64,000 nucleotides of DNA from a virus. Its lineage: Duplodnaviria; Heunggongvirae; Uroviricota; Caudoviricetes. Below, one piece after another: positions 828 to 60,040 of this stretch. Each line of letters opens with the position of its first letter. The first letter of the stretch is position 1. The stretch is from the IMG/VR virus record IMGVR_UViG_3300006145_000006, positions 2,480 to 66,479 of that record; one strand, given 5' to 3'. The notes beneath the pieces were generated by a model. The model saw nothing but the letters and a program-made list of their open reading frames with translations. It was not told the DNA's origin and made no database searches. The position numbers were made by a program, and so were the translations under genes.

Positions 828-1274
828 TCAATCTGGATATTGCAACGGAATAAAACCGTACTTGCATATCCTGAATTCTAGCTTCATTGCACTTTCATGC
901 GATATTCCAGTAATCTGTTCTATCATCTCCATAGCAGTACTGTGGTCGTGCTTGAGGGAAAAAGGCAAAACGGAAGACAAATCAAATTTTACTCCGTAAA
1001 TAATGCACTCTCCAGGTTCGACTTGCTCTTTGCTTTCAGTGTCTGGTGTCTCCGTGTCATACGCCGACATACCGAATCTAAACGACCGCCGTTCTCTTTC
1101 CTCACGCTCTATATCGTCCAAAACGGCGGCGGTAAAGGCGTGGTCGATCCAGTCTGTTCCGGTGGGCTGAAACAGTGGCTTACCGAAGAAGTCATTCATA
1201 TGGCCCATACTGATCTCCTCCAAGGATTGGTTGTGGTTATCATAACACACATCATGTAGATTTGCAATTACCAA
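828..1274 (-). CDS. hypothetical protein upstream of (co-oriented with) the MazF-like gene; possible partner/antitoxin
   Basis: 148-aa acidic ORF with no recognisable domain. Position only. Confidence 0.35.
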   Translation of the reverse strand: MVIANLHDVCYDNHNQSLEEISMGHMNDFFGKPLFQPTGTDWIDHAFTAAVLDDIEREERERRSFRFGMSAYDTETPDTESKEQVEPGECIIYGVKFDLSSVLPFSLKHDHSTAMEMIEQITGISHESAMKLEFRICKYGFIPLQYPD

Positions 1275-4200
1275 CCAAGCTCTCCGCCATTGGGACTCTT
1301 ACGTCTATTTTTGCCAATAACACTCAAAATGCGTCTGCACAGGTCTCGCAATTGGCAGGCGCATTCTCTGTATTAACTCCGGCGCAAATCGCCAACTATG
1401 CTTCACTCCAAAAACTAACAGAACAACAATTACTGGAAATTTTAGATTTGGCAACTTTGAGCAAAGAACAAAAAGACCAGATTATGAACATGTATTTAGC
1501 TGCCACGGCAACGAACACATATACCGGTGCTGCCGGCGGGGCAACTGTTGCTACTGGTGGTCTTGCGGCTGGGCTCAAAGGGCTGACCGCAGTAATTGCG
1601 GCAAATCCGTGGGGCTTTGTCATTACGGCTCTCGCGACCATAATTACCCTATCTATCTCTTGGCAGAAGGCGCAGGAAAAGGCCTTTCAAGAAGCAATCG
1701 ACAATGCTAAAAAGCTTCAGAACGAGTATGAAGCAACTGTTGATACGCTTAAAGATAATATGGAGGCTGTTCAATCTCTAAGTACAGAGTTTTCCAAACT
1801 TTCTGTCGGCGTTGACGATAAGGGAAATAATATTTCACTGACAAACGAGCAATATGACAGGTATCTTGAAATTGTCAACAAGCTAGTTGGGATCAACCCA
1901 AGCCTCGTAAAAGGTTGGGACGACGAAAACCAGGCGATTATAGACAAGAACTCTGCTATTGCAAGTACGATTGAGCTTCTCAAACAGCAAAGGCAGCTCG
2001 AACTGCAAAAGGTAACCACCGCCGACAACAACTGGGACATTCTTGAGGGGTTGTCGAATCAATACTCCAAAGAGATGGATGCCGTCGAAGACGAAGTCAA
2101 CAAAATACGTAATGCTTTTGTCGGCAACATCGAGTTTAATAAGGGTTACAAGGACAACCATGTATTTGGAAACAAAGATTCATGGGCGGCCCTGTTCGAC
2201 CAAATAGCCGAGGCGTATGGCTTAGATCCCGCTAAGGTCGTTGGCTTTGACAGCAAAACAATGCAAAGCGGCTGGGCGGCTTTGTATAAGGCTCTGTTCG
2301 GTGTAGACATGGCAAAACAGGCGAACTTCACCGAGCAGGAGCTAAGGAAGCTCGCAAGCTTTGATTATACTAAACTGTTTGGTATACTCGATAACGACAT
2401 CTACTCTCAGTTTGAGAATGCCACAAACAGAGCCAGGCTTGCCGTCTCTCAGTTAGATAATGCGGCCAATGCGTATCAATCTCAGCTCCAGAGAATTGCA
2501 CAGGCTTCAACCGGTTGGGATAAGCTAAGCGATGGGTCTCAGTCATTTATCAACACATGGATCACGACCATGAAGATTGGTGAGAAAGAGACTGAGTCCA
2601 GCGCTCAGGCAATGACAGACAACCTACAGACCATGATAACCCTGCTGTCCAGCGGGACGGAAGACGGGAATCTACTGCAAAGCAAAATTGATTCGCTATT
2701 CGCTCTCGACTTCAGTAAAATGAATGCGAATCAAGTTGAGCAATGGTATGATGTTGCGGAAAATGCAATTGGCGACATTCAAGAAATTCTCAGCCACTAT
2801 GGTAAGTCTTTATCAGATGACGATATTGCAGCTATCCGGGCTTCCATTGGCCTTGACCTCAACTTTGAGATTAATGGTCAGCCTGCAACTCCGGCGACGC
2901 TTGTTGATGCCGTCAAGGCCAAGTTCAAAGAGCGTGGCTGGAATGAGGATGATGTCAACGGCCTCAATCTCGGAGAGCTGAAGGCGTTCTTTACAGCAGA
3001 TCTTACTGTATATTCGTCTGCCGCAGATGCAAAAGAGGGGTTGTTCCCCCCGCAGACCGTTGATAACGTCAACTCCCTCAAGACCGCCCTCGCCGGGCTA
3101 TCCGATGAAACGACAGTTTTACGGGATGCGATGGCGAAGCTGGACGAGGGGTCTGCGGCCTTTGACAAGTGGATCGGCTCTGACGATAACCTGAAATCCC
3201 TGCTGGATAAGTTCCCCGATCTGCGGGATGAGCTGGAGGCATATAACAACGCCCTGGCCGCCGGGGAGGACCCGCAGAAGGCCTTTATTACCCTCCAGCG
3301 GGCGATGAACGCCGCGCTACAGGACTTCAACACCGACGCGATCTATGATGGCATCAACGATGTTGTCTCGGCCTGCGACACCTATGGAGCCTCTTCCAAC
3401 CAGGTTTTACAGGCCGTGCAGAACCTGGACCGCTTCATCCCGGGGCTGGTCGATAAGCTGTACACCGAGGAGAACGGACTACTCACCGTTGCTTCGGGGG
3501 CGAATTTCAGCGCCGCAGCGATCTATAACGCAGCCAAGGAAACAATCGAGCTGGAGAAGGTCGTCGGTAAGGCAAAGTTTGACGTGTTTGTGGCAGAGGT
3601 GGACAACGTTTCCGACGCCCTCATGAGAATGGGCGGCACAGCAGCCATTGCCGTCGGTGGGCTGAACCCCTACAAGTCGCTCCAAGAAGCAAAAGATCAA
3701 TACATCAAGGATCTCGACTCTCTTCTTGCATCTCTGAACGGAGCATATCGCCGCATCAACAGTAACAACAAAAAGAGTAAGAGCGAGAAAGAGGTCTATG
3801 TCCCGGATGTAGATCCGCTGTATCAGTATCTGCAAGCCGTTGAGGATATCAACGACGAGCTCGACGGGCTGGACATCGACGAGAAGCTTCTGGACGAGGA
3901 CGATTTTGAGGGCAAAAATCGTCTCATTGGAGACCGCATTGAGAAGCTGGAGGAGCTGAAAACCGCCCTCCACGAGCTGAACAATGCCAGAGATGTGGAG
4001 ATCCACACCGCTGTCGGGAAGCTGAATGGCTACGGTGACTTCCAGGCCACCTATGATGCGGAGAGCGGGCAAGCGCTCATCAACAACATGGACGCTCTCA
4101 AGCACTTGACCGGAGATACGGCGAAAGCCGCCGAGGAGCTTATTTCTACCATTGAGAACGGAAGCAAGGCGGCTATCTCTACATCCAAGGAATATATGGA

Positions 4201-6094
4201 GGCACTAGTCGAGCAAAACGCCATGCTGAAAGAGCAGAGGGAGCTGCAAGGGGGAGCAAGCGATGACCGCATCGAGCGGCACAGCAACGCCATCAGCCTG
4301 CTCAAAAACCAGCAGAGCGTTTATGAGGGCAACCTTGACTATCAGGCCGCCGTCCAGTCGCTCAAGGAGCAGAAATCTCACTGGGTAGAGATCCAGAATA
4401 TCGCACACCAGATGGCGGAGGATATCAGAGCCGCCCACCCCGGCATCACCAACGATGACCCCCTACTGAAGAAGTGGATCGATACTTGGTGGGAGGCCAA
4501 CGGTGAGATCAAGACCGCCAACGAGAGGTTTGTGGAGGACAGTCTTGCCCGGCTGGACAGCTTCATCCAGCAGGCGGACAACTTTAACTGGTGGGACCAC
4601 ATCGACACCACCAAGGTGGATATGCTGGAAAAGAAGCTGGCGACCATCCACCAGCTCTACGCAGACGGCATTATTCCAGACGCCGCCACCTACAAGAAGC
4701 TGGTTGACGAGACGGCCAAGGAGATCTATGACGAAAAGCTCAACGCCATTGAGAGGGTCATTGACTACACCAAGAAGCTGATCGAGGAGGAAGTTCGGCT
4801 TCGCAAGGAGGAGCTGGAGGAGCAGGTCGACGACTATAAGAAAATCGTTGACCTGAAGAAGGAGTCCCTCCGGGTAAGCAAGGACGAGGCGGACTACCAG
4901 AGGTCGGTTGCGGAGAAAACGAAGGCCATCGCCAAGCTCCAGCAACAGATCAACACTTTGTCTCTGTCCGACGACCGTCGAGATATCGCAGAGCGCAAAA
5001 AGCTGGAGGAGGAGCTGGCGGAGCTGCAAGGCGAGCTGGCGGATACTCAGGCTGACCACACTCTGGAGGCGCAGGAAAAGGCTCTGGACGACAGCTATAA
5101 TGCCTTTGAGCAGGAGAAGAACGACGAGATCAAGAAGCTGGAGGCCACCATCGACACCGAAGGCAAGCTCTATGCCCTGGCGATCAATCGCATTGACAGA
5201 GACTGGAACACCCTGTATGACGACCTGATGCAGATGAACTCCCTATATTGGGACGGAATCGCAGGCGAGGCCGGGATCAAGGGTGCATGGGATACAGCCA
5301 AGCAAGCTGCCGAGGGTTATAAGGGCACCTTGGAGACCATCCAGGGCATCGAGAAGGAACGGGCAGCCGTATCCGGCACGGGGACTTCGGTGGGAAGCTC
5401 TGTTGTTTCCGATAAGAGCGCCGCCTATCTCACCGGGGACATCGACAAACAGAAGAAACTCCAAGCTATCGGTGCGGAGATGCAGACCAATAGCCAGATG
5501 TGGCACACGGCTTACAACGCCAACAACAAGGGGCAGATGGAGGCTCTGCAAAAGGCTAACCAGAGGCTTGCCAAACAAGTCAAGGATTTGACGGGGCAGG
5601 AACCTGTGTTTGACTCCAGGGACGGGTATTGGAAGCTCGCCAACGGTGAACACTTCTATGAGGTGTATCATGGCGGCACAAAGGCCGTAGGCTCCAACGA
5701 GCCGTGGAATCTCAAGTCTGATGAGATCATGGCCAAGTTGCAACGAGAAGAGGCTGTCATCCCGAAAGATCAGGTACGGCCTACGCTCAAGTTCCTTGAA
5801 TGGGGTAACTCCATGGCAAGCAAAGCCCGAGGACTGTTCTCCGGGGGCGGGCTTATCGCCTCCGCTATGGGCAACGCCGTCAAGGGCGCTCCTCTCTCCC
5901 CCGCTGCCGGGGCTATTGTGAACAACAACGCCCCCAGTTTTGCTCCCAACATCAACGTTGAGGTCAAGTATGACGGCTCTGCCAGCCCTGCGGACGCCAA
6001 GCGCTTTGGGGAGAACATTACCGCCGGCATCAACGAGGCATTCCGCCGTAAGGGCTTTGGTACTGGGGCCAACCCGCTGGGGGTTACCATCTAA
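1262..6094 (+). CDS. phage tail tape measure protein (TMP); start codon uncertain (TTG, no clear SD)
   Basis: 1610 aa with long coiled-coil stretches. N-terminal Gly/Ala-rich TM segments (AAGGATVATGGLAAGLKGL...ITALATIITLSI). Lies immediately upstream of the tail tip protein. Sharp GC shift near 3.0 kb inside the gene. Confidence 0.8.
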   Translation: MQLPTKLSAIGTLTSIFANNTQNASAQVSQLAGAFSVLTPAQIANYASLQKLTEQQLLEILDLATLSKEQKDQIMNMYLAATATNTYTGAAGGATVATGGLAAGLKGLTAVIAANPWGFVITALATIITLSISWQKAQEKAFQEAIDNAKKLQNEYEATVDTLKDNMEAVQSLSTEFSKLSVGVDDKGNNISLTNEQYDRYLEIVNKLVGINPSLVKGWDDENQAIIDKNSAIASTIELLKQQRQLELQKVTTADNNWDILEGLSNQYSKEMDAVEDEVNKIRNAFVGNIEFNKGYKDNHVFGNKDSWAALFDQIAEAYGLDPAKVVGFDSKTMQSGWAALYKALFGVDMAKQANFTEQELRKLASFDYTKLFGILDNDIYSQFENATNRARLAVSQLDNAANAYQSQLQRIAQASTGWDKLSDGSQSFINTWITTMKIGEKETESSAQAMTDNLQTMITLLSSGTEDGNLLQSKIDSLFALDFSKMNANQVEQWYDVAENAIGDIQEILSHYGKSLSDDDIAAIRASIGLDLNFEINGQPATPATLVDAVKAKFKERGWNEDDVNGLNLGELKAFFTADLTVYSSAADAKEGLFPPQTVDNVNSLKTALAGLSDETTVLRDAMAKLDEGSAAFDKWIGSDDNLKSLLDKFPDLRDELEAYNNALAAGEDPQKAFITLQRAMNAALQDFNTDAIYDGINDVVSACDTYGASSNQVLQAVQNLDRFIPGLVDKLYTEENGLLTVASGANFSAAAIYNAAKETIELEKVVGKAKFDVFVAEVDNVSDALMRMGGTAAIAVGGLNPYKSLQEAKDQYIKDLDSLLASLNGAYRRINSNNKKSKSEKEVYVPDVDPLYQYLQAVEDINDELDGLDIDEKLLDEDDFEGKNRLIGDRIEKLEELKTALHELNNARDVEIHTAVGKLNGYGDFQATYDAESGQALINNMDALKHLTGDTAKAAEELISTIENGSKAAISTSKEYMEALVEQNAMLKEQRELQGGASDDRIERHSNAISLLKNQQSVYEGNLDYQAAVQSLKEQKSHWVEIQNIAHQMAEDIRAAHPGITNDDPLLKKWIDTWWEANGEIKTANERFVEDSLARLDSFIQQADNFNWWDHIDTTKVDMLEKKLATIHQLYADGIIPDAATYKKLVDETAKEIYDEKLNAIERVIDYTKKLIEEEVRLRKEELEEQVDDYKKIVDLKKESLRVSKDEADYQRSVAEKTKAIAKLQQQINTLSLSDDRRDIAERKKLEEELAELQGELADTQADHTLEAQEKALDDSYNAFEQEKNDEIKKLEATIDTEGKLYALAINRIDRDWNTLYDDLMQMNSLYWDGIAGEAGIKGAWDTAKQAAEGYKGTLETIQGIEKERAAVSGTGTSVGSSVVSDKSAAYLTGDIDKQKKLQAIGAEMQTNSQMWHTAYNANNKGQMEALQKANQRLAKQVKDLTGQEPVFDSRDGYWKLANGEHFYEVYHGGTKAVGSNEPWNLKSDEIMAKLQREEAVIPKDQVRPTLKFLEWGNSMASKARGLFSGGGLIASAMGNAVKGAPLSPAAGAIVNNNAPSFAPNINVEVKYDGSASPADAKRFGENITAGINEAFRRKGFGTGANPLGVTI

Positions 6095-23421: not shown

Positions 23422-24588
23422 CTAACCGTTTGCTATGCTTTTGTCTGGAGAGCCCAACACGGAGTCCAAAATTTGAGCGGGGACAATTTTTGCCTCGGCC
23501 AGCAAACCGCCGTAGTATTCATCTGTAGTGGCGTAGCTTTCATGGCCCAACCAGTTTTGGACTGACTGCATGGTGGCTCCGTTGGAGAGAAGCAGAACGG
23601 CGTTGGTGTGCCTGAGATCATGGAAGCGGATCACACGCAAGCTGTTTTTTCGCAGGAACTTTGGGAAGTTCCAGGAGATATAGCCCGGGGTAATGAGGTT
23701 TCCGATCTTGTCCACACAAACAAAGTTTTCCCATTTGGTATTATAGCTCTCACCGCACAAAAGGCGTTGTTCCATCTGCGCTATCTTCCAATGTCGAAGA
23801 ACTCTACACTGTTCATCGGTCAGAGGGAATATCCGTTCCCCAGCCTTGGACTTTGGATGATCCCGGTAACTGTACTGACTGGAAGTCCCTTCCTGCACAA
23901 TGACGCCGGTGATCGACATGGTCTTCCTGGCGAAGTCAATATCCTTCCAGCGTAGTCCTGTGGCCTCACCACGACGCAAGCCAAACCAACAGGCCAGATA
24001 GACGGGGCGTTCCAGTTTTGTACCCACAGTGGCACTCAAAAGCGCCTGGGATTCCTCGGCGGTATAAAAGCTACCTTGAAATTTTTTGACTTTTGGGAGG
24101 ATGACTCGCTCGGCCGGATTACTTGCCACCACACCTAAACGAACAGCGTCCTTCAGAGCGGAATAGATAGCGGCTTGGTAGTGGCTGATAGTATTGGCTG
24201 ATACTCCGTCCTTTGTCTGCTTGTAGCGGTAGAAGCTCTCAATTTCGGCTACTCCGCAGTCTTGAAGGGCAATGCCACATTCGTCAAAATAGGGGGAAAT
24301 GACATTATCTATCATTTTCCTGTAGCTTCGGTACGTACTATCCTCAATACTGGGCTTCTTTCTTTCCAGCCAATCCTTCAGAAATGCAGCAAAAGACATT
24401 TCCTTGTAGTTTGGACATATTTTCTGCTTCCATTCAGCTAAAGTTTGCTCTTTTACCGCTTCTCCCGCTCGTTTTCCGTATTTGATTGGTAAGTCCGTGG
24501 GAATCCACTTCTGCTTCCTCTTGGTGCCTTGTTTCCAATTCAAGACAACATATACGGTATCGTTTTTCATTTGCAGGCTTGCTGTCAA
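23422..24588 (-). CDS. int: tyrosine integrase (phage integrase family)
   Basis: C-terminal catalytic R...HDLRHT...LGHESYATTDEYY signature. N-terminal SAM-like DNA-binding domain. Confidence 0.9.
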   Translation of the reverse strand: MTASLQMKNDTVYVVLNWKQGTKRKQKWIPTDLPIKYGKRAGEAVKEQTLAEWKQKICPNYKEMSFAAFLKDWLERKKPSIEDSTYRSYRKMIDNVISPYFDECGIALQDCGVAEIESFYRYKQTKDGVSANTISHYQAAIYSALKDAVRLGVVASNPAERVILPKVKKFQGSFYTAEESQALLSATVGTKLERPVYLACWFGLRRGEATGLRWKDIDFARKTMSITGVIVQEGTSSQYSYRDHPKSKAGERIFPLTDEQCRVLRHWKIAQMEQRLLCGESYNTKWENFVCVDKIGNLITPGYISWNFPKFLRKNSLRVIRFHDLRHTNAVLLLSNGATMQSVQNWLGHESYATTDEYYGGLLAEAKIVPAQILDSVLGSPDKSIANG

Positions 24589-51983: not shown

Positions 51984-52916
51984 TTATGTGGCTTTTCTCG
52001 TCTCCCGAAGAAGACAATACGCAGTAAATGTTTTCTTCCATCCCTGCATTTGATATGTGTCATAGGTTCTTCTTTTAAATCTCAATGCATCCAAAAATTG
52101 CTCATCTTCAAAAGTCTCCCACGGTTCATAAAGATGATATAGCATTCCGGCAATCTGCGTTAAGTGAATCGCAATTTTGCGTTCTACTCCTGTCATCTGC
52201 TCATATTTCCTCGCGACATTGGAAACAGACACAGTTAGTTTGCGGGGGTCAACTTGATGCTCTGTTGTCGCACTAAAACAGTCCGTTGATTTAATCAACC
52301 ATTCCCCCGACAACTTATATATCTGTCTTCCGCTCCCTCTATTGGGAATAACCTCTGAATCTGTATCGCAATACTTTTTTAGAACTCTCCATAGCGGATC
52401 AGGAACATGAGTACCGCACAATGCATGTTTGTCAAAATCGATATCACTTTCTTTGAGTCGAGCCATATCCGGCGTTTTATACCCCATCCACGCAAGACAC
52501 AGGCACGGGGCAGCTATGTTAATGGTTTTATCTCCAAGTGCCGTGACAATGATAGACTCTAACTCGCCTGGGGTCAGCGGAGCATCCAAGATTTCCTGCA
52601 TTTCTTTACTATTGAAAAGTTCATCCCGCTGCAAGGGTTGCTCCATATATGGCTCGAAAATCTTTCTCCATCCAATATAATCATATAGGTGCGACATAAT
52701 GGTTTCATACTGGGCAGGATAGGTTTTTTTAATCGTTGCCCCAGCAATGGCGGCCTGTTCTTGCGTCAAATTGCATACATCATTTTTCGTAACGTCTTCA
52801 ACCAGTCGAAAACTCCTCACTAATGTAATAGCATCCTCTTTTTCAATCCCACAGGACACTAACATCTGAACGTATCTGGTTTTCCAGAAAGGATCAAATA
52901 TAAATTGTATCTCCAT
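51984..52916 (-). CDS. hypothetical protein
   Basis: 310-aa ORF. Confidence 0.45.
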   Translation of the reverse strand: MEIQFIFDPFWKTRYVQMLVSCGIEKEDAITLVRSFRLVEDVTKNDVCNLTQEQAAIAGATIKKTYPAQYETIMSHLYDYIGWRKIFEPYMEQPLQRDELFNSKEMQEILDAPLTPGELESIIVTALGDKTINIAAPCLCLAWMGYKTPDMARLKESDIDFDKHALCGTHVPDPLWRVLKKYCDTDSEVIPNRGSGRQIYKLSGEWLIKSTDCFSATTEHQVDPRKLTVSVSNVARKYEQMTGVERKIAIHLTQIAGMLYHLYEPWETFEDEQFLDALRFKRRTYDTYQMQGWKKTFTAYCLLRETRKAT

Positions 52917-52972
52917 AAGGCAAGCCCCTTTCCAGGTTCTGTCTTATATAATAACACGCCCTATCAGGATTG

Positions 52973-53227
52973 TCAATACCATTCGCAAATTTTAATGAAC
53001 TTTTTTTCGTCCTCCTCAAGTGTCATATCGCCACCCAGCACAATCGGGTGCGGAATTGCGGGGTCATCCTCGTCATAGAAGCAGAAACGGTATCTATCTC
53101 CTCCGTTGTATGTAACCATCATATGCGGCCTATAACTAAAGGTCCTGAGCCGCAAGATTCTGAGCAGCGGCTCACACTCGTTGATTGGCCCTGTCAGCGT
53201 AAACTCCCCTAACCCCTTAATAATCAT
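52973..53227 (-). CDS. hypothetical small protein
   Basis: 84 aa. Confidence 0.4.
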   Translation of the reverse strand: MIIKGLGEFTLTGPINECEPLLRILRLRTFSYRPHMMVTYNGGDRYRFCFYDEDDPAIPHPIVLGGDMTLEEDEKKFIKICEWY

Positions 53228-53317
53228 TTTGCATCACTCCTAGACTTTCATCTTCGCATCGGGGATTATCGAACTTTCGTTCTATAATATAACACCGCCG
53301 TTCCGGTTTGTCAAGCC

Positions 53318-53518
53318 CTAACCATCCGGAAAAACTTCGCCGATTGTTTTCCCCATCGCCCTACAAATCGCATAAGCAACCGGAACCGTTGGGATACGGT
53401 AGCCCTGCTCAATCTTCCATAGATGCCCCTTACTCACACCACTTAGATGAGACAATTCCGATAACGACATATTCAGTTGGTATCTGAGCTGCGCCAGGTT
53501 GTTCTTCATCAGAACCAC
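53318..53518 (-). CDS. XRE-family HTH transcriptional regulator (Cro/CI-like)
   Basis: LSELSHLSGVSKGHLWKIEQG helix-turn-helix. Confidence 0.7.
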   Translation of the reverse strand: MVLMKNNLAQLRYQLNMSLSELSHLSGVSKGHLWKIEQGYRIPTVPVAYAICRAMGKTIGEVFPDG

Positions 53519-53543
53519 TCCTGGGGTAGTATTCTCGATCCAA

Positions 53544-53750
53544 CTAAATATTAACAGTATTGGTGTATCCTATGGGACACGCTTGTTGACACAGCTTGAC
53601 AAAATCAGTCATGCCGATATGGTCTACATATGGGCCATAACCCATACATCTTTCGCAAAATTCGTTATCCTGGCTCATCACAATGTTGGCTCGGTCGTAC
53701 TCGTCCGGGCAACAAGTCTCAAGGAAACATTTCAAACACAGCTCCGCCAA
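53544..53750 (-). CDS. Cys-rich small protein
   Basis: 68 aa with 9 Cys. Confidence 0.4.
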   Translation of the reverse strand: MAELCLKCFLETCCPDEYDRANIVMSQDNEFCERCMGYGPYVDHIGMTDFVKLCQQACPIGYTNTVNI

Positions 53751-57224: not shown

Positions 57225-57554
57225 TCACCTTAAAAAGTTAATGCAGTCCCGCTCGATGCCACGGCGGCACCCAGATCCAAGTTCATATGTAGACCACGGA
57301 ACCCAGGGAGAGACATATTCCTCTGTCACGTCTCCGGTGATATCATATACCCGACACCCTATCTGCGTGGCAAAGTGGTTGTTCACTGGGTCGTAAACTA
57401 TCGCTCCGCCGAATCTCAGCTCCAATACCTTCGCAAACCAGTAACAACACCCGCTCGTGAACGTCTCGGCGACCTCTTGCCGTCGTCCTCCAAGCGTGAA
57501 GCAGGAAATGAAGTCAAGGACGTCGTCACACTCCAAACGCTGCCACCTGGCCAA
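57225..57554 (-). CDS. hypothetical protein
   Basis: 109 aa. Confidence 0.4.
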   Translation of the reverse strand: MARWQRLECDDVLDFISCFTLGGRRQEVAETFTSGCCYWFAKVLELRFGGAIVYDPVNNHFATQIGCRVYDITGDVTEEYVSPWVPWSTYELGSGCRRGIERDCINFLR

Positions 57555-57688
57555 TCAAATTGCGCTCCTCAGCCAATGCCATGCTAATGCGGCTGCGGAA
57601 CTCAGGGTCATTTTCCACCTTGTCCTTATAGTACGGATTCTTGCCCGCCAGGATATTCTCAAATGCGTTGGCAATCATCCGGCATTCC

Positions 57689-58747
57689 TCAAGAGTCTTC
57701 TTTGTCATGTGTCAAGCCTTCTTTCTTTTCAAATTCCTCGATTGCCTCAATACCAAGGTTAATAAAGAGGTCGATTTGTGCGAAGGTTTCCTCCTCGCCG
57801 ATATAGCGCGCCGTAGTAGATGTACTGGAGTGATTTGCCCACCTAGATGTCACCCCAGGAGGCAGTGTCCTTCTAAACAATTCGTCCGATACGTCACGCC
57901 CCGGCAACGCACCACATCCTGCGGTAATTGCTGTTTTTCTCAGGGTATGTGCAGTGATTCGATGTCCCTCGGTATCATAAAGGCCAAGCTTTTGCGCCTT
58001 CTGTTTGATGATCTCACAGATGCTATCCGGGGACAGGCCCACCGGGATATCAGAATGACGGCGTTCCCTAATCCACAATTTCCTCTGGCGGTCATAGGGC
58101 CAGTCGATGGTGGATCCATCAGTGAAGACAACGTGGATCTGATGGCGTCTGTAGTCCTCTGCGGCCGGCTCAATGCCTCTGTTGCGGTAGGCCTGTACGC
58201 GACTAGCAATTTCAAACCTTGCACTTTCGTAATCGTCACAGCGGTCTTTTTCGTCGTGGAAATAACTTTTGCGATTTCCCCTGGGCATAAAAACATAAGA
58301 GTTAAGCTCCTTTGGGGCTCCAACCCTCTGCAAATATAGGTGGGTCATACGTATAAGTGCTTCATTGCTGGTAATTCGGATGAACTTTCCCGTCTTCTGT
58401 TCCTGAAACCACCACGATGTTTTCACCATGAAATCCTCATTGAGAATGTTTTTCCACTTCAACAGAGACAAGTCGATGGCCCGGAACTTTGTGTTTAACC
58501 CAGTCACGAAGAGGAGAGCATCCCTCCACTCGCCGCAGTTCAAGAAGTCTGTCAGCATCAGATTAACTTCTTCCACAGACCGAAAAGAGTTTGCGGCCTT
58601 CTTGCCTTCTTGCTCCTGTTGAACCGTCTCTTCGCGGTCGTCCCATTTATGGACTTTCTTATTTCTAAACCGGGGTGTGCCCATACTAGGCAACAGGATG
58701 ATGTTGTTGCGCTGTTCCAGGACCGTTGCTTGCGGCATTCTCTCCAC
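57689..58747 (-). CDS. second tyrosine recombinase (phage integrase family) inside the early region
   Basis: C-terminal HTLRKTAITAG...ANHSSTSTTARYI (HxxR...Y). Confidence 0.75.
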   Translation of the reverse strand: MERMPQATVLEQRNNIILLPSMGTPRFRNKKVHKWDDREETVQQEQEGKKAANSFRSVEEVNLMLTDFLNCGEWRDALLFVTGLNTKFRAIDLSLLKWKNILNEDFMVKTSWWFQEQKTGKFIRITSNEALIRMTHLYLQRVGAPKELNSYVFMPRGNRKSYFHDEKDRCDDYESARFEIASRVQAYRNRGIEPAAEDYRRHQIHVVFTDGSTIDWPYDRQRKLWIRERRHSDIPVGLSPDSICEIIKQKAQKLGLYDTEGHRITAHTLRKTAITAGCGALPGRDVSDELFRRTLPPGVTSRWANHSSTSTTARYIGEEETFAQIDLFINLGIEAIEEFEKKEGLTHDKEDS

Positions 58748-58751
58748 CTCC

Positions 58752-59141
58752 TTAACCTACTTTTTCCATCTCGTCTCTTTCAAATCCGGGCAACACGAGC
58801 TGCACCCCCAGGCTGATGAGCATAGCCCGCTCGGCAGCGGCCATATCCTCTTTATTCAGCCGGCCAACTCGACCCTTCAGGCGCCGCTTGTCGATTGTCC
58901 TTACCTGTTCCATTAGAACTACAGAATCACAAGGCAAATTCCCTGCGCCGGCACGCAAAAAAACATGGGTCGGCAGAGGTGCCTTATTCTGCCTGGATGT
59001 GATCGACGCCGCAATTACCGTCGGGCTGTAGCGGTTGCCCACGTTGTTCTGAATGATGAGGACGGGACGCTCCCCGCCCTGCTCACTGCCGACCGGTGCG
59101 CCCAGGTCGGCGTAATAGATCTCGCCTCTCCTAATATCCAT
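58752..59141 (-). CDS. EndoA/MazF-like endoribonuclease toxin (start MDIRRGEIYY, SD AGGAGG)
   Basis: ~60% identity over the core to B. subtilis EndoA (IRRGEIYYADLGAPVGSEQGGERPVLIIQNNVGNRYSPTVIAASITS...LPTHV). No MazE/EndoAI-like ORF in the 138-nt upstream gap. Confidence 0.85.
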   Translation of the reverse strand: MDIRRGEIYYADLGAPVGSEQGGERPVLIIQNNVGNRYSPTVIAASITSRQNKAPLPTHVFLRAGAGNLPCDSVVLMEQVRTIDKRRLKGRVGRLNKEDMAAAERAMLISLGVQLVLPGFERDEMEKVG

Positions 59142-59279
59142 TTCGTCCTCCTGGCCGCACATACCACGCGGGCTTCTATTTATATTTAGTTGGTATGTAC
59201 CCCGCCGGGGGACTCGCTTTGTGTTAATCAGAGTTGGGTGCTGTCCTCCTTTTCTTTTGATTCAATATGTATGCATTCT

Positions 59280-59549
59280 TTATTGTGGCTCTTTCATTTT
59301 TCCATGCCATACCGGAGCACAGCGCTGATGTCCGCCCCGGTTATAACATCCTGTAAAAGAGCAAAAGTTACATGTATCTATGTTCTGACCGCCGCATTGC
59401 ATGATGGTCTCCAAATCGTCCAGCATCTGCGCAATCATATCGTCCTTGCTGTCAAACTCCAGCACAACAGGGTCAGGAAAAGCTCCGCAGGTATCAGGGG
59501 CTTCATCGCAGAACCATCTCCGGTCACATTCTCCGCATCTGCCTTTCAT
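59280..59549 (-). CDS. Cys-rich (double zinc-ribbon-like) small protein upstream of the EndoA-like gene
   Basis: CGECDRRWFCDEAPDTC ... CNFCSFTGCYNRGGHQRC. Confidence 0.45.
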   Translation of the reverse strand: MKGRCGECDRRWFCDEAPDTCGAFPDPVVLEFDSKDDMIAQMLDDLETIMQCGGQNIDTCNFCSFTGCYNRGGHQRCAPVWHGKMKEPQ

Positions 59550-59575
59550 ACAGCCCTCCTTATAAAATGTGTCTT

Positions 59576-60040
59576 TTATTTGGCGTTACGGAAGTGTAAC
59601 TTTTTCGCATGTTCAAAATCCTTCATCCCAAATCCATAGCATTCATCGCATTGGACAAGGTGATCGGCCAATTCCCCCATGTCTGCCTCATCGTCGAAGA
59701 TAATATAATTATCAACTTCTGGGTGCTCATTGAGCCATGCTCGAATTTCCTCACCGCGACAGGCGTTCAATCGTGGGGTTCTACCTATAATTTGAATACC
59801 ATGTCTTAGCCCGCCGTTCATAAGACATTCTGCGTAGTTATCTCCAAATCTCCATGTGCTGGTTACCACAATGTCGTATTGAAATTTTTCACAGAATTCA
59901 GACACCCATTGAACAGCCTGAAAATTATTTACCTTATTATCCATCGGGTATCCATAGTTACACCTGGCTCCACTTTTGTCCCACATGACCGTATTGACCA
60001 CACCATCATAGTCAAGAAAGAGCACATTCACTGCGACCAC
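59576..60040 (-). CDS. HAD-superfamily phosphatase
   Basis: LFLDYDGVVN (DxDGV motif I) and IIFDDEAD (motif IV). Confidence 0.6.
   Translation of the reverse strand: MVAVNVLFLDYDGVVNTVMWDKSGARCNYGYPMDNKVNNFQAVQWVSEFCEKFQYDIVVTSTWRFGDNYAECLMNGGLRHGIQIIGRTPRLNACRGEEIRAWLNEHPEVDNYIIFDDEADMGELADHLVQCDECYGFGMKDFEHAKKLHFRNAK

Follow-up and report, generated by a model that had tools for sequence, protein, structure and literature searches.

A phage mazF gene with a near-invariant leader and a recombinase-family partner gene, a candidate self-limiting regulator of early transcripts

We analyzed a stretch of 64,000 nucleotides (nt; hereafter, the window), which comprises positions 2,480 to 66,479 of the IMG/VR virus record IMGVR_UViG_3300006145_000006 (Caudoviricetes), with a focus on mazF1, a gene encoding an EndoA/MazF-type endoribonuclease. 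The gene is preceded by a near-invariant 5′ leader and followed by a gene of the tyrosine recombinase family, whose product is termed Rec here, and by a gene for a helical protein of 60 amino acids (aa), p60 (Table 1). We tentatively regard the locus as a conserved phage operon and not as a decayed mazEF pair. The window belongs to the genome of a large tailed phage of the gut/rumen type. Its plus strand carries the tape-measure gene and tail genes from 1262 to about 22600, and the mazF1 cassette lies in a minus-strand block of 23.4–64 kb, together with genes for a canonical integrase, NrdD, the DNA polymerase III alpha subunit, a primase-helicase, ThyX, a C5 methylase, and dozens of small genes.

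Table 1. Coordinates of the mazF1 cassette and of further features in the window (SD, Shine–Dalgarno sequence; ORF, open reading frame).
Feature	Position	Strand	Remarks
mazF1, EndoA/MazF-type endoribonuclease, 129 aa	58752..59141	-	PF02452, PDB matches, catalytic residues; stop codon included in coordinates
Near-invariant 5′ leader of mazF1	59142..59250	-	from pseudo-SD to mazF ATG, ~105 nt
Pseudo-SD AGGAGG	59245-59250	-	5′ edge of leader
UACAUA site 1	59266..59271	-	~-130 from ATG, 5′ edge of conserved block; in 9/10 lineages scored
Anti-SD GUCCCCC	59207-59213	-	pairs with SD in predicted fold
Leader stem arms	59191-59200 and 59157-59166	-	predicted
UACAUA site 2	59194..59199	-	-58 from ATG, in 5′ arm of predicted stem; in 10/10 lineages scored
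True SD of mazF1	59147-59152	-	within leader
Rec, recombinase-family gene, 349 aa	57689..58738	-	tyrosine-recombinase catalytic domain only, disordered N-terminus, ~70-aa inserted beta-rich region
Rec C-terminal helix F(I/V)NLG(I/L)EAI(E/D)EFEKKEG	57716..57766	-	after catalytic Tyr; conserved between Rec types
p60, 60-aa helical protein	57526..57708	-	overlaps Rec stop by 20 nt; frequent, non-obligatory third gene
89-aa Cys-rich (Zn-ribbon) ORF	59280..59549	-	variable accessory gene, outside conserved cassette
mazF2, divergent PemK-family gene, 152 aa	254..712	-	PF02452 4.6e-19, conserved ~32-aa N-terminal extension
Canonical integrase	23422-24588	-	SAM-like N-terminal domain and catalytic domain

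MazF1 matched PF02452 (PemK_toxin) with an E-value of 2e-33 and 115.3 bits (cut-off 23.1), phrog_1936 ("MazF-like growth inhibitor") with 1.1e-30, and, among solved structures, S. aureus MazF (7.8e-35) and B. subtilis EndoA (4ME7; 4e-33). Identity to EndoA amounted to 52% in BLASTP (59/113) and to about 67% over the first 60 residues as counted on the alignment, which makes the value of roughly 60% over the core, given in an earlier reading of the letters without database searches (the sequence-only reading), a fair one. The catalytic Arg (GGERPV) and Thr (ASIT) of MazF1 align with R25 and T48 of EndoA. Across MazF1, EndoA, and the family of MazF2, the second and more divergent MazF of the window, the Arg of the "RP" motif is invariant and the T48 column always holds T or S; thus, both MazF genes pass the alignment of catalytic residues by which the sequence-only reading could have been overturned. 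Conserved RNA-binding loops are likewise common to MazF1 and the MazF proteins of Bacillota. The strong SD noticed before is the sequence AGGAGG, located 5 nt ahead of the mazF1 ATG. In the database, MazF1 is represented by 22 clusters with 85–98% identity, every one of them 129 aa in length, and ratios of nonsynonymous to synonymous substitution (dN/dS) of 0.02–0.075 at a dS of 0.4–1.9 reveal purifying selection. By all these comparisons, mazF1 is an intact and strongly constrained MazF/PemK nuclease gene.

No antitoxin gene of the known kind was found next to it. Within the 138-nt gap upstream of mazF1 (59142-59279), the gene strand holds no ORF of at least 20 aa, save a 28-aa out-of-frame ORF which overlaps the end of the upstream gene. 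Using tblastn with five MazE sequences and a profile of the toxin-binding tail, we detected no EndoAI-type MazE in the gap, in the whole window, or in the cassette loci of related phages; the EndoAI query was checked against 4ME7_E and found to be exact. The claim that mazF1 lacks a MazE/EndoAI-type neighbor was therefore borne out by ORF scan, BLAST, and profile alike, and the adjacent small ribbon–helix–helix (RHH) or AbrB-type MazE gene that defines a type II mazEF pair, as a rule located upstream of the toxin gene and overlapping it, is absent at mazF1. The sole profile match was an out-of-frame 26-aa segment (...KGYMKMAK...) in two related loci (L112, 1925-2002; L113, 1511-1588), which overlaps with the 3′ part of a gene for a 79-aa Zn-finger protein and resembles the MazF-binding helix of MazE (RGYMEMAK; E = 0.004 in a database of 3367 ORFs). 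The segment lacks a start codon, and we took the match to be due to chance.

The adjacency of mazF1 to a recombinase gene, which the sequence-only reading had called unusual, is real and turned out to be the conserved feature of the locus. The order mazF–Rec was found in all loci of sufficient length, comprising at least 11 distinct, diverged lineages, and the spacing is 11–13 nt in all of them, while the flanking genes turn over on both sides. Homologues of Rec formed 9 clusters among 5.8e9 proteins, each beside the same 129-aa mazF, and all Rec-bearing contigs from this search show the 129-aa PemK gene, Rec 11–13 nt further on, and then a 60-aa ORF overlapping the Rec stop. Starting from the toxin, Rec follows in every MazF1-clade cluster that was looked up. 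The pair recurs even in a deep-branching phage on a 123-kb IMG/VR contig (L122), in which a gap of about 12 nt separates the gene of a MazF with 52% identity to MazF1 from a downstream Rec-like gene of 273 aa. The lineages are old, as the synonymous divergence of MazF is 0.4–1.9, and MazF proteins are 90–98% identical where the accompanying Rec proteins, of a 349-aa and a 289-aa type, are only 36–40% identical to each other. We consider it almost certain that purifying selection maintains the cassette as a functional unit. A metagenome scan with MazF1 returned only homologues of about 60% identity (58–67%, loci L009-L088), and Rec, p60, and the leader were all missing from these loci.

The other neighbors are less constant. 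Homologues of p60 fall into 14 clusters (75–100% identity) and always lie beside the cassette where the contig extends far enough upstream; GTDB genomes and IMG/VR contained no match to p60, and 50,697 GenBank phage records contained no homologue of either Rec or p60. The AlphaFold2 (AF2) model of p60 shows a helical hairpin with a predicted local distance difference test (pLDDT) score of 91, for which a fold search against the PDB gave no informative match. In L112 and L113/114, p60 is missing and a DUF551 gene follows Rec, with mazF, leader, and Rec intact. The 89-aa Zn-ribbon ORF, for which Pfam, PHROG, and NCBIfam gave no family match, lies upstream of mazF in only 3 of the 11 lineages (the window lineage, L004/5, and L092/93), its place being taken in the other eight by unrelated genes of 53–161 aa. 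From this lineage table of gene contexts, we conclude that the Zn-ribbon gene is accessory, p60 optional, and Rec the invariant protein partner.

The Rec ORF begins 13 nt past the mazF1 stop, and its SD overlaps that stop, a position which suggests translational coupling of Rec to mazF1. Rec scored barely above threshold with PF00589 (27.7 vs. 27.1 bits) and matched phrog_216 with 1.4e-16. Residues R86, D89, K115, R267, H303, and Y312 are invariant and H264 is present in nine of ten sequences, which yields the full seven-position catalytic set. In the AF2 model (pLDDT 67), residues 1–47 are disordered and the catalytic domain begins near residue 55; the best Foldseek matches of this pLDDT-67 model were Cre, XerA, lambda Int, and XerH (probability 1.0, template modeling score ~0.42). 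Neither Pfam nor the AF2 model revealed an N-terminal core-binding (SAM-like) domain, which the canonical integrase of the window does have. Purifying selection also acts on Rec (dN/dS of 0.06–0.09 within the 289-aa type). The C-terminal helix is shared by the two otherwise dissimilar Rec types and is present in loci without p60 as well; its residues are fixed while synonymous sites vary (synonymous differences per synonymous site, pS, of 0.3–0.87), and the AF2 model places a helix at residues 330–339 with a mean pLDDT of 90 for residues 331–340. An exhaustive profile search uncovered a wider Rec family of about 190–300 aa with 21 representatives at E < 1e-30 and 252 at E < 1e-10. A C-terminal "NLGLEAI..(Y/F)" motif unites its closer members, and distant relatives (L123-L143) lack the (I/L)EA(I/L) helix after "NLG". 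Since L122 repeats the mazF–Rec pair whereas L123-L143 mostly do not, the pairing is ancient within one branch of the family and does not extend to the family as a whole. On a JGI contig of 1251 nt (L001, 3300006167; positions 654-1251), a nearly identical cassette carries a GAA to TAA change at Rec codon 163, explained by either a natural variant without functional Rec or an error in the assembly.

The leader of mazF1 is conserved to an extent that exceeds the coding sequence next to it. Mean column identity was 96% for 10 and 93% for 15 sequences, and within the last 63 nt only three changes occur, each in a single lineage. Because adjacent synonymous sites of mazF differ by about 50% (pS 0.3–0.69), the constraint on the leader acts at the nucleotide level. 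Minimum free energy folding with RNAfold and consensus folding with RNAalifold both returned one long hairpin, in which GUCCCCC pairs with the SD and an inner stem of 10 bp is formed by GUACAUACCA and UGGUAUGUGC. The leader is thus predicted to sequester the ribosome-binding site of mazF1, and a second AGGAGGRC copy at its 5′ edge could conceivably act as an anti-anti-SD. Rfam had no match for the leader or the cassette region, nor for the leaders of bacterial mazF genes; a search of IMG/VR did not return the leader sequence, and we saw in it neither a sigma-70-like promoter or terminator nor a convincing antisense promoter or terminator. L122 has no comparable long leader, an ORF ending about 5 nt before the inferred MazF start.

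Several other functions of the leader were considered and dismissed. An attP or tRNA-like core was dropped on inspection, as the sequence forms no plausible tRNA 3′ end. Homology to a class of structured leaders of MazE-less clostridial mazF genes was rejected too, as the covariance model of that class (R1) misses the phage leader. An N-terminal coding extension deserved closer attention: only the frame that runs on into the mazF ATG stays open across the leader (59142-59231, minus strand), and five of the six variants in leader columns 35–49 are synonymous in it. This extension has no ATG, GTG, or TTG start, contains an in-frame TAG in L112, and shows an overall ratio of synonymous to nonsynonymous changes of 9/19, like the other frames, and was rejected. 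A CUG-initiated MazF1 isoform, longer by 30 aa, may nevertheless be encoded. As a separate observation, 12–15 nt of the leader "loop" (ATACCAACTAAATAT) recur as an inverted pair at 53469-53483 (minus strand) and 53540-53551 (plus strand), flanking the start of a gene of the XRE helix–turn–helix (HTH) type. These recurrences are individually weak (E of 0.4–1.6) and may reflect a shared operator or chance.

The leader also contains putative cleavage sites of its own toxin. U^ACAUA is reported to be the strict MazF site common to B. subtilis, L. monocytogenes, and S. aureus (bioRxiv 10.64898/2026.08.06.743204). Two UACAUA hexamers occur at fixed positions in or at the edge of the leader (Table 1). 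The columns of site 2 are invariant in all 15 aligned leaders, and site 1 is missing in L112 and reads UACGUA in a further fragment (L110). At early-region density, the chance of finding at least two sites in the leader is 0.003; the cassette coding sequence (1.25–1.64 kb) contains none in the 10 lineages.

Early genes beyond the leader are rich in the hexamer, too. The sense strand of the early region holds 24 UACAUA vs. 12.5 expected from a fourth-order Markov model (z = 4.3), the first rank among 4088 hexamers, and with the leader masked it still ranked first (22 vs. 11.6 expected). The late structural region has 2 in 21.4 kb vs. 1.5 expected. Ten related early-region loci together gave 59 vs. 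35.4 expected, again the first rank (of 4096 hexamers), with 21 on the antisense strand as a control. Shuffling synonymous codons within early genes yielded 7.1 ± 2.4 UACAUA compared to 17 observed (P = 0.0005), and the corresponding controls remained close to expectation (9 vs. 6.5 for the reverse complement; 2 vs. 1.6 for late genes). There is, hence, a strand- and module-specific excess of UACAUA in early genes, brought about through codon arrangement. Avoidance of the motif as a form of self-immunity was rejected (UACAU, 67 vs. 56 expected in the phage). The sequence-only reading had raised host mRNA shut-off as a role for solitary phage MazF; a selective shut-off through self-avoidance does not fit, as neither UACAU nor UACAUA is depleted in phage transcripts and the early ones are enriched.

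Control of early transcripts by a phage RNase is known from phage T4. RegB is a phage-encoded, sequence-specific RNase of toxin-like ancestry without an antitoxin, which targets the phage's own early mRNAs; it has a RelE-like fold, cuts GGAG in ribosome-binding sites, and has no coupled recombinase. Like RegB, MazF1 is phage-encoded and has no antitoxin gene of the known kind beside it, and its presumed motif abounds in early genes and is scarce in late ones; MazF fold, UACAUA motif, and the coupled recombinase-family gene in a phage cassette set the locus apart. Among the MazEF systems of Bacillota (EndoA/EndoAI, encoded by ndoA-ndoAI, and the S. aureus system), the toxin is 52% identical to MazF1 with the same catalytic residues, and the UACAUA site fits the motif statistics. 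In contrast to these systems, the phage window has no RHH-type MazE, the toxin gene comes first, the coupled partner is a recombinase-family protein, and the leader is long and near-invariant. Lysogeny of phages phi3T and SPbeta is promoted by the activity of host MazF, which phage proteins either switch on or inhibit: the short MazE-mimicking helices AimX and YosL block MazF, phi3T_93/YopM bind MazE, and the master repressor MrpR/YopR, a protein of tyrosine-recombinase fold, is encoded in an operon that includes the MazE binder (PMC10769878, PMC10516654). Here, too, a large Bacillota-type phage brings MazF activity and a tyrosine-recombinase-fold protein into one operon context, and MazF presumably acts on lytic transcripts; unlike SPbeta and phi3T, however, the mazF1 phage itself encodes MazF. 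Rec also differs from MrpR, which keeps three of seven catalytic residues compared to all seven in Rec, so that the loss of most catalytic residues typical of MrpR/YopR is not seen; a core-binding domain is present in MrpR only, and MrpR (8A0A) was returned by neither sequence nor fold search with Rec.

The reading we favor, although tentatively and at somewhat less than even confidence, is that the cassette encodes a self-limiting mRNA regulator acting on early transcripts. MazF1 would probably be an active nuclease with UACAUA-type specificity, as suggested by 52–58% identity to tested MazF proteins of Bacillota and by the motif statistics. With slightly better than even confidence, its main substrates would be the phage's own early transcripts: since these are enriched in UACAUA and late structural mRNAs are nearly free of it, MazF1 would shut off or re-program early expression. 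Such cleavage might, as with T4 RegB, help to switch from early to late expression or, equally, bias the decision between lysis and lysogeny as host MazF does in phi3T/SPbeta. As the leader carries two conserved UACAUA sites, MazF, be it the phage's own or that of the host, could cut its own message; that the leader controls the dosage of MazF in cis in this way, with feedback of either sign, appears to us evenly balanced. A role of the downstream Rec as protein-level partner, either as a toxin-first, non-canonical antitoxin or as a DNA-binding regulator of the cassette, is suggested by linkage and is possible but rather doubtful. We hold the antitoxin role in this low regard because the Rec tail bears no similarity to MazE and because L001 combines a Rec nonsense codon with an intact mazF. 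That all parts act together in an undescribed control circuit, in which Rec serves as antitoxin or regulator, possibly via its C-terminal helix, the leader senses the MazF activity of phage or host through its two UACAUA sites, and the early UACAUA excess evolved for shut-off or for a lysis–lysogeny decision, seems unlikely.

Several observations weigh against the favored regulator. The predicted leader fold found little support, with no compensatory pairs, two wobble-compatible changes, and z = -0.15 vs. shuffles, and two leader variants break a 3-bp helix. With leaders masked in a four-lineage set, UACAUA dropped to rank 8. The UACAUA specificity of MazF1 is assumed by homology, and the hexamer excess could stem from another DNA- or RNA-level signal containing TACATA. 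Regarding Rec, phmmer against the PDB, tblastn, and the EndoAI-type tail profile gave no sign of MazE similarity in its tail or in p60, and mimicry of MazE by sequence was rejected for both. The "NLGLEAI" motif also occurs in Rec-family members of unplaced genomic context.

The main competing explanation is that MazF1 is solitary, only mildly toxic owing to its 6-nt specificity, and controlled by timing and by the leader, with Rec being an unrelated site-specific recombinase of the same operon that acts in dimer resolution, as an inversion switch, or at a second attachment (att) site. The full catalytic set and the Cre/Xer/Int-like fold of Rec argue for real recombination rather than a pure regulator, and the leader and mazF of L001 are intact despite the Rec nonsense codon. 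Related recombinases without a core-binding domain also occur without MazF; as no MazF was found in the 2.5-kb flanks of 19 of the 21 distant loci (L123-L143), the Rec family has a MazF-independent life. Moreover, 75 of the 80 closest metagenomic MazF loci are without a recognizable EndoAI-type MazE (5 have one), no antitoxin is annotated for the MazF of phages Perkons, PMBT24, and NatCom_42228, and the literature describes "mazF only in some cases" among Bacillota as well as a MazF that is a non-lethal regulator in B. subtilis (bioRxiv 10.64898/2026.08.06.743204). Against an unrelated recombinase stand the spacing of 11–13 nt, kept in every lineage despite turnover of both flanks, and the recurrence of this spacing in L122 at 52% MazF identity. 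We also detected no inverted or direct repeats of note around the cassette and no second copy of the leader in the window, and the 10-bp inverted arms of the leader, 24 nt apart, are atypical for a recombination core site. On this evidence, we regard a solitary MazF1 as a serious, though unlikely, explanation.

The remaining explanations place the antitoxin elsewhere. The type III toxins, ToxN among them, resemble MazF/Kid in fold, and the RNA that serves as their antitoxin is encoded immediately upstream. By analogy, the leader RNA might itself be the antitoxin, ToxI-like or a pseudo-substrate that MazF cuts at the two UACAUA sites and that is kept as inhibitor; its extreme nucleotide conservation, including the 24-nt "loop", and two consensus cleavage sites about 72 nt apart at fixed positions would suit this. 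Yet the leader has none of the tandem or direct repeats of ToxIN-like systems, no terminator-like hairpin separates it from the ORF to provide RNA in excess over protein, and with a single leader on each mRNA, many MazF dimers could not be titrated. In addition, L122 has the MazF–Rec pair without a comparable leader and the model of the bacterial mazF leader class misses the phage leader, which together makes an RNA antitoxin improbable. We judge p60, as antitoxin of a toxin-first arrangement of three genes, slightly more improbable still. It is small, helical, and confidently modeled, overlaps the Rec stop, is well conserved, and is found only in the cassette wherever the contig extends upstream; but it lacks MazE similarity, its fold search was uninformative, and its loss from L112 and L113/114, where the rest of the cassette is intact, excludes an obligate role. 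Least probable of all, and very remote, is the proposal of the sequence-only reading that the Zn-ribbon protein neutralizes MazF1 and an acidic protein encoded upstream of mazF2 neutralizes MazF2. It draws on adjacency in the window only and on an acidic middle segment in the Zn-ribbon protein. The absence of the Zn-ribbon gene from the position upstream of mazF in 8 of 11 lineages led us to reject it as a non-canonical antitoxin or regulator of MazF1, and the acidic ORF was rejected as partner of MazF2 since none of 13 related loci carries it.

MazF is usually seen as one half of an addiction or defense pair. Phage MazF without an annotated antitoxin is already known: more than 100 GenBank phage records encode MazF relatives (PHROG 1936, annotated as morons), often with no annotated antitoxin, and MazE-less mazF genes are known from Bacillota. 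A recombinase partner was present in none of the three PHROG 1936 phage records inspected (Perkons, PMBT24, and NatCom_42228). We found no description of a mazF–recombinase operon, a self-targeted leader, or an early-gene excess of MazF sites in the literature searched, and no match in PADLOC, Rfam, or GenBank phages. The mazF1 locus would complement the manipulation of host MazF by SPbeta-like phages, in that a phage brings its own MazF along with a recombinase-family partner and a self-targeted leader. If this is true, phage early genes would have evolved to be cut by MazF, and the locus offers an entry point into the question of why many phage and clostridial mazF genes have no antitoxin.

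The second MazF of the window is a separate case. MazF2 reached 69.1 bits with PF02452 (cut-off 23.1) and matched phrog_1936 with 1.9e-14, while its identity to MazF1 is 24%. Its relatives, 55–64% identical, were found on 13 IMG/VR phage contigs of 30–166 kb. All 13 share the N-terminal extension of about 32 aa (...ENLxRW...K(L/I)QDRF...) and the catalytic Arg and Ser/Thr, and because of this shared extension the 152-aa, GTG-initiated ORF is the likely MazF2 product. The gene is an intact nuclease gene and, as the sequence-only reading had it, has no MazE-type gene beside it; the acidic upstream partner, on the other hand, is not conserved in the 13 IMG/VR loci, the neighbors of which vary. 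The acidic ORF (828-1274) more likely begins at the ATG at 1207, which gives a product of about 126 aa. MazF2 is, therefore, a separate, stand-alone PemK-family gene without a conserved neighbor. The minus-strand pair of mazF2 and acidic ORF (254-1274) abuts the start of the plus-strand tape-measure ORF (1262-6094). MazF2-type and other phage mazF genes recur in tail modules by tape-measure genes (L098-L100, L105, and L120, the latter being Enterocloster phage PMBT24, the mazF of which adjoins the tape-measure gene).

Among the upstream neighbors of mazF1, the motif AAAAGACACATTTTA was found in nine matches with up to 3 mismatches vs. 2.0 expected (window 59563-59577, minus strand, and eight further sites). 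It precedes the Zn-ribbon gene in the window and directly precedes the mazF leader in L002, L003, L092, L108, and L113, a pattern that would fit an insertion of the Zn-ribbon gene between motif and leader. Two genes upstream of mazF1 lies a HAD_SAK_2 gene (59576-60040, minus strand; "Swiss Army Knife RNA repair" HAD domain, 1.8e-23), which was also called in L004 (4678-5154) and L092 (3852-4307). Other relatives have an RNA ligase gene near the cassette (PF09414 in L115, 859-1491; a weak RLIG1 match in L002, 3910-4497). Given that MazF cleavage leaves 2′,3′-cyclic phosphate and 5′-OH ends, a link between RNA repair and the cassette is conceivable. In the metagenomic mazF loci (L009-L088), GATTAAA occurs at -51 to -91 in 16 of 64 unique upstream regions vs. 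about 0.7 expected. A subgroup of these (L017, L060, L069, L075, L077, and L082) shares a structured leader, which base-pairs with the region of the SD and shows one compensatory pair; this leader has no Rfam match, and its model R1 also hits L019.

Elsewhere in the window, a PADLOC scan found no known defense system. GGWCC sites are the most depleted pentamers on the whole sense strands (GGACC, 23 vs. 69.7 expected; GGTCC, 18 vs. 41.4), which looks like avoidance of an AvaII/Sau96I-type restriction site. An ORF of 310 aa (51984-52916, minus strand) comes after the XRE-type HTH gene mentioned above (53318-53509, minus strand) and is preceded by two near-consensus TTGACA-N17-TATAAT-like promoters at about 53280-53310 and 52945-52975. 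It has no family match and shows faint similarity (E ~1) to the Arg-I box of the Tn1549 integrase, with Lys replacing Arg, and could, to go by these features, encode a degenerate recombinase-fold regulator of the MrpR kind.

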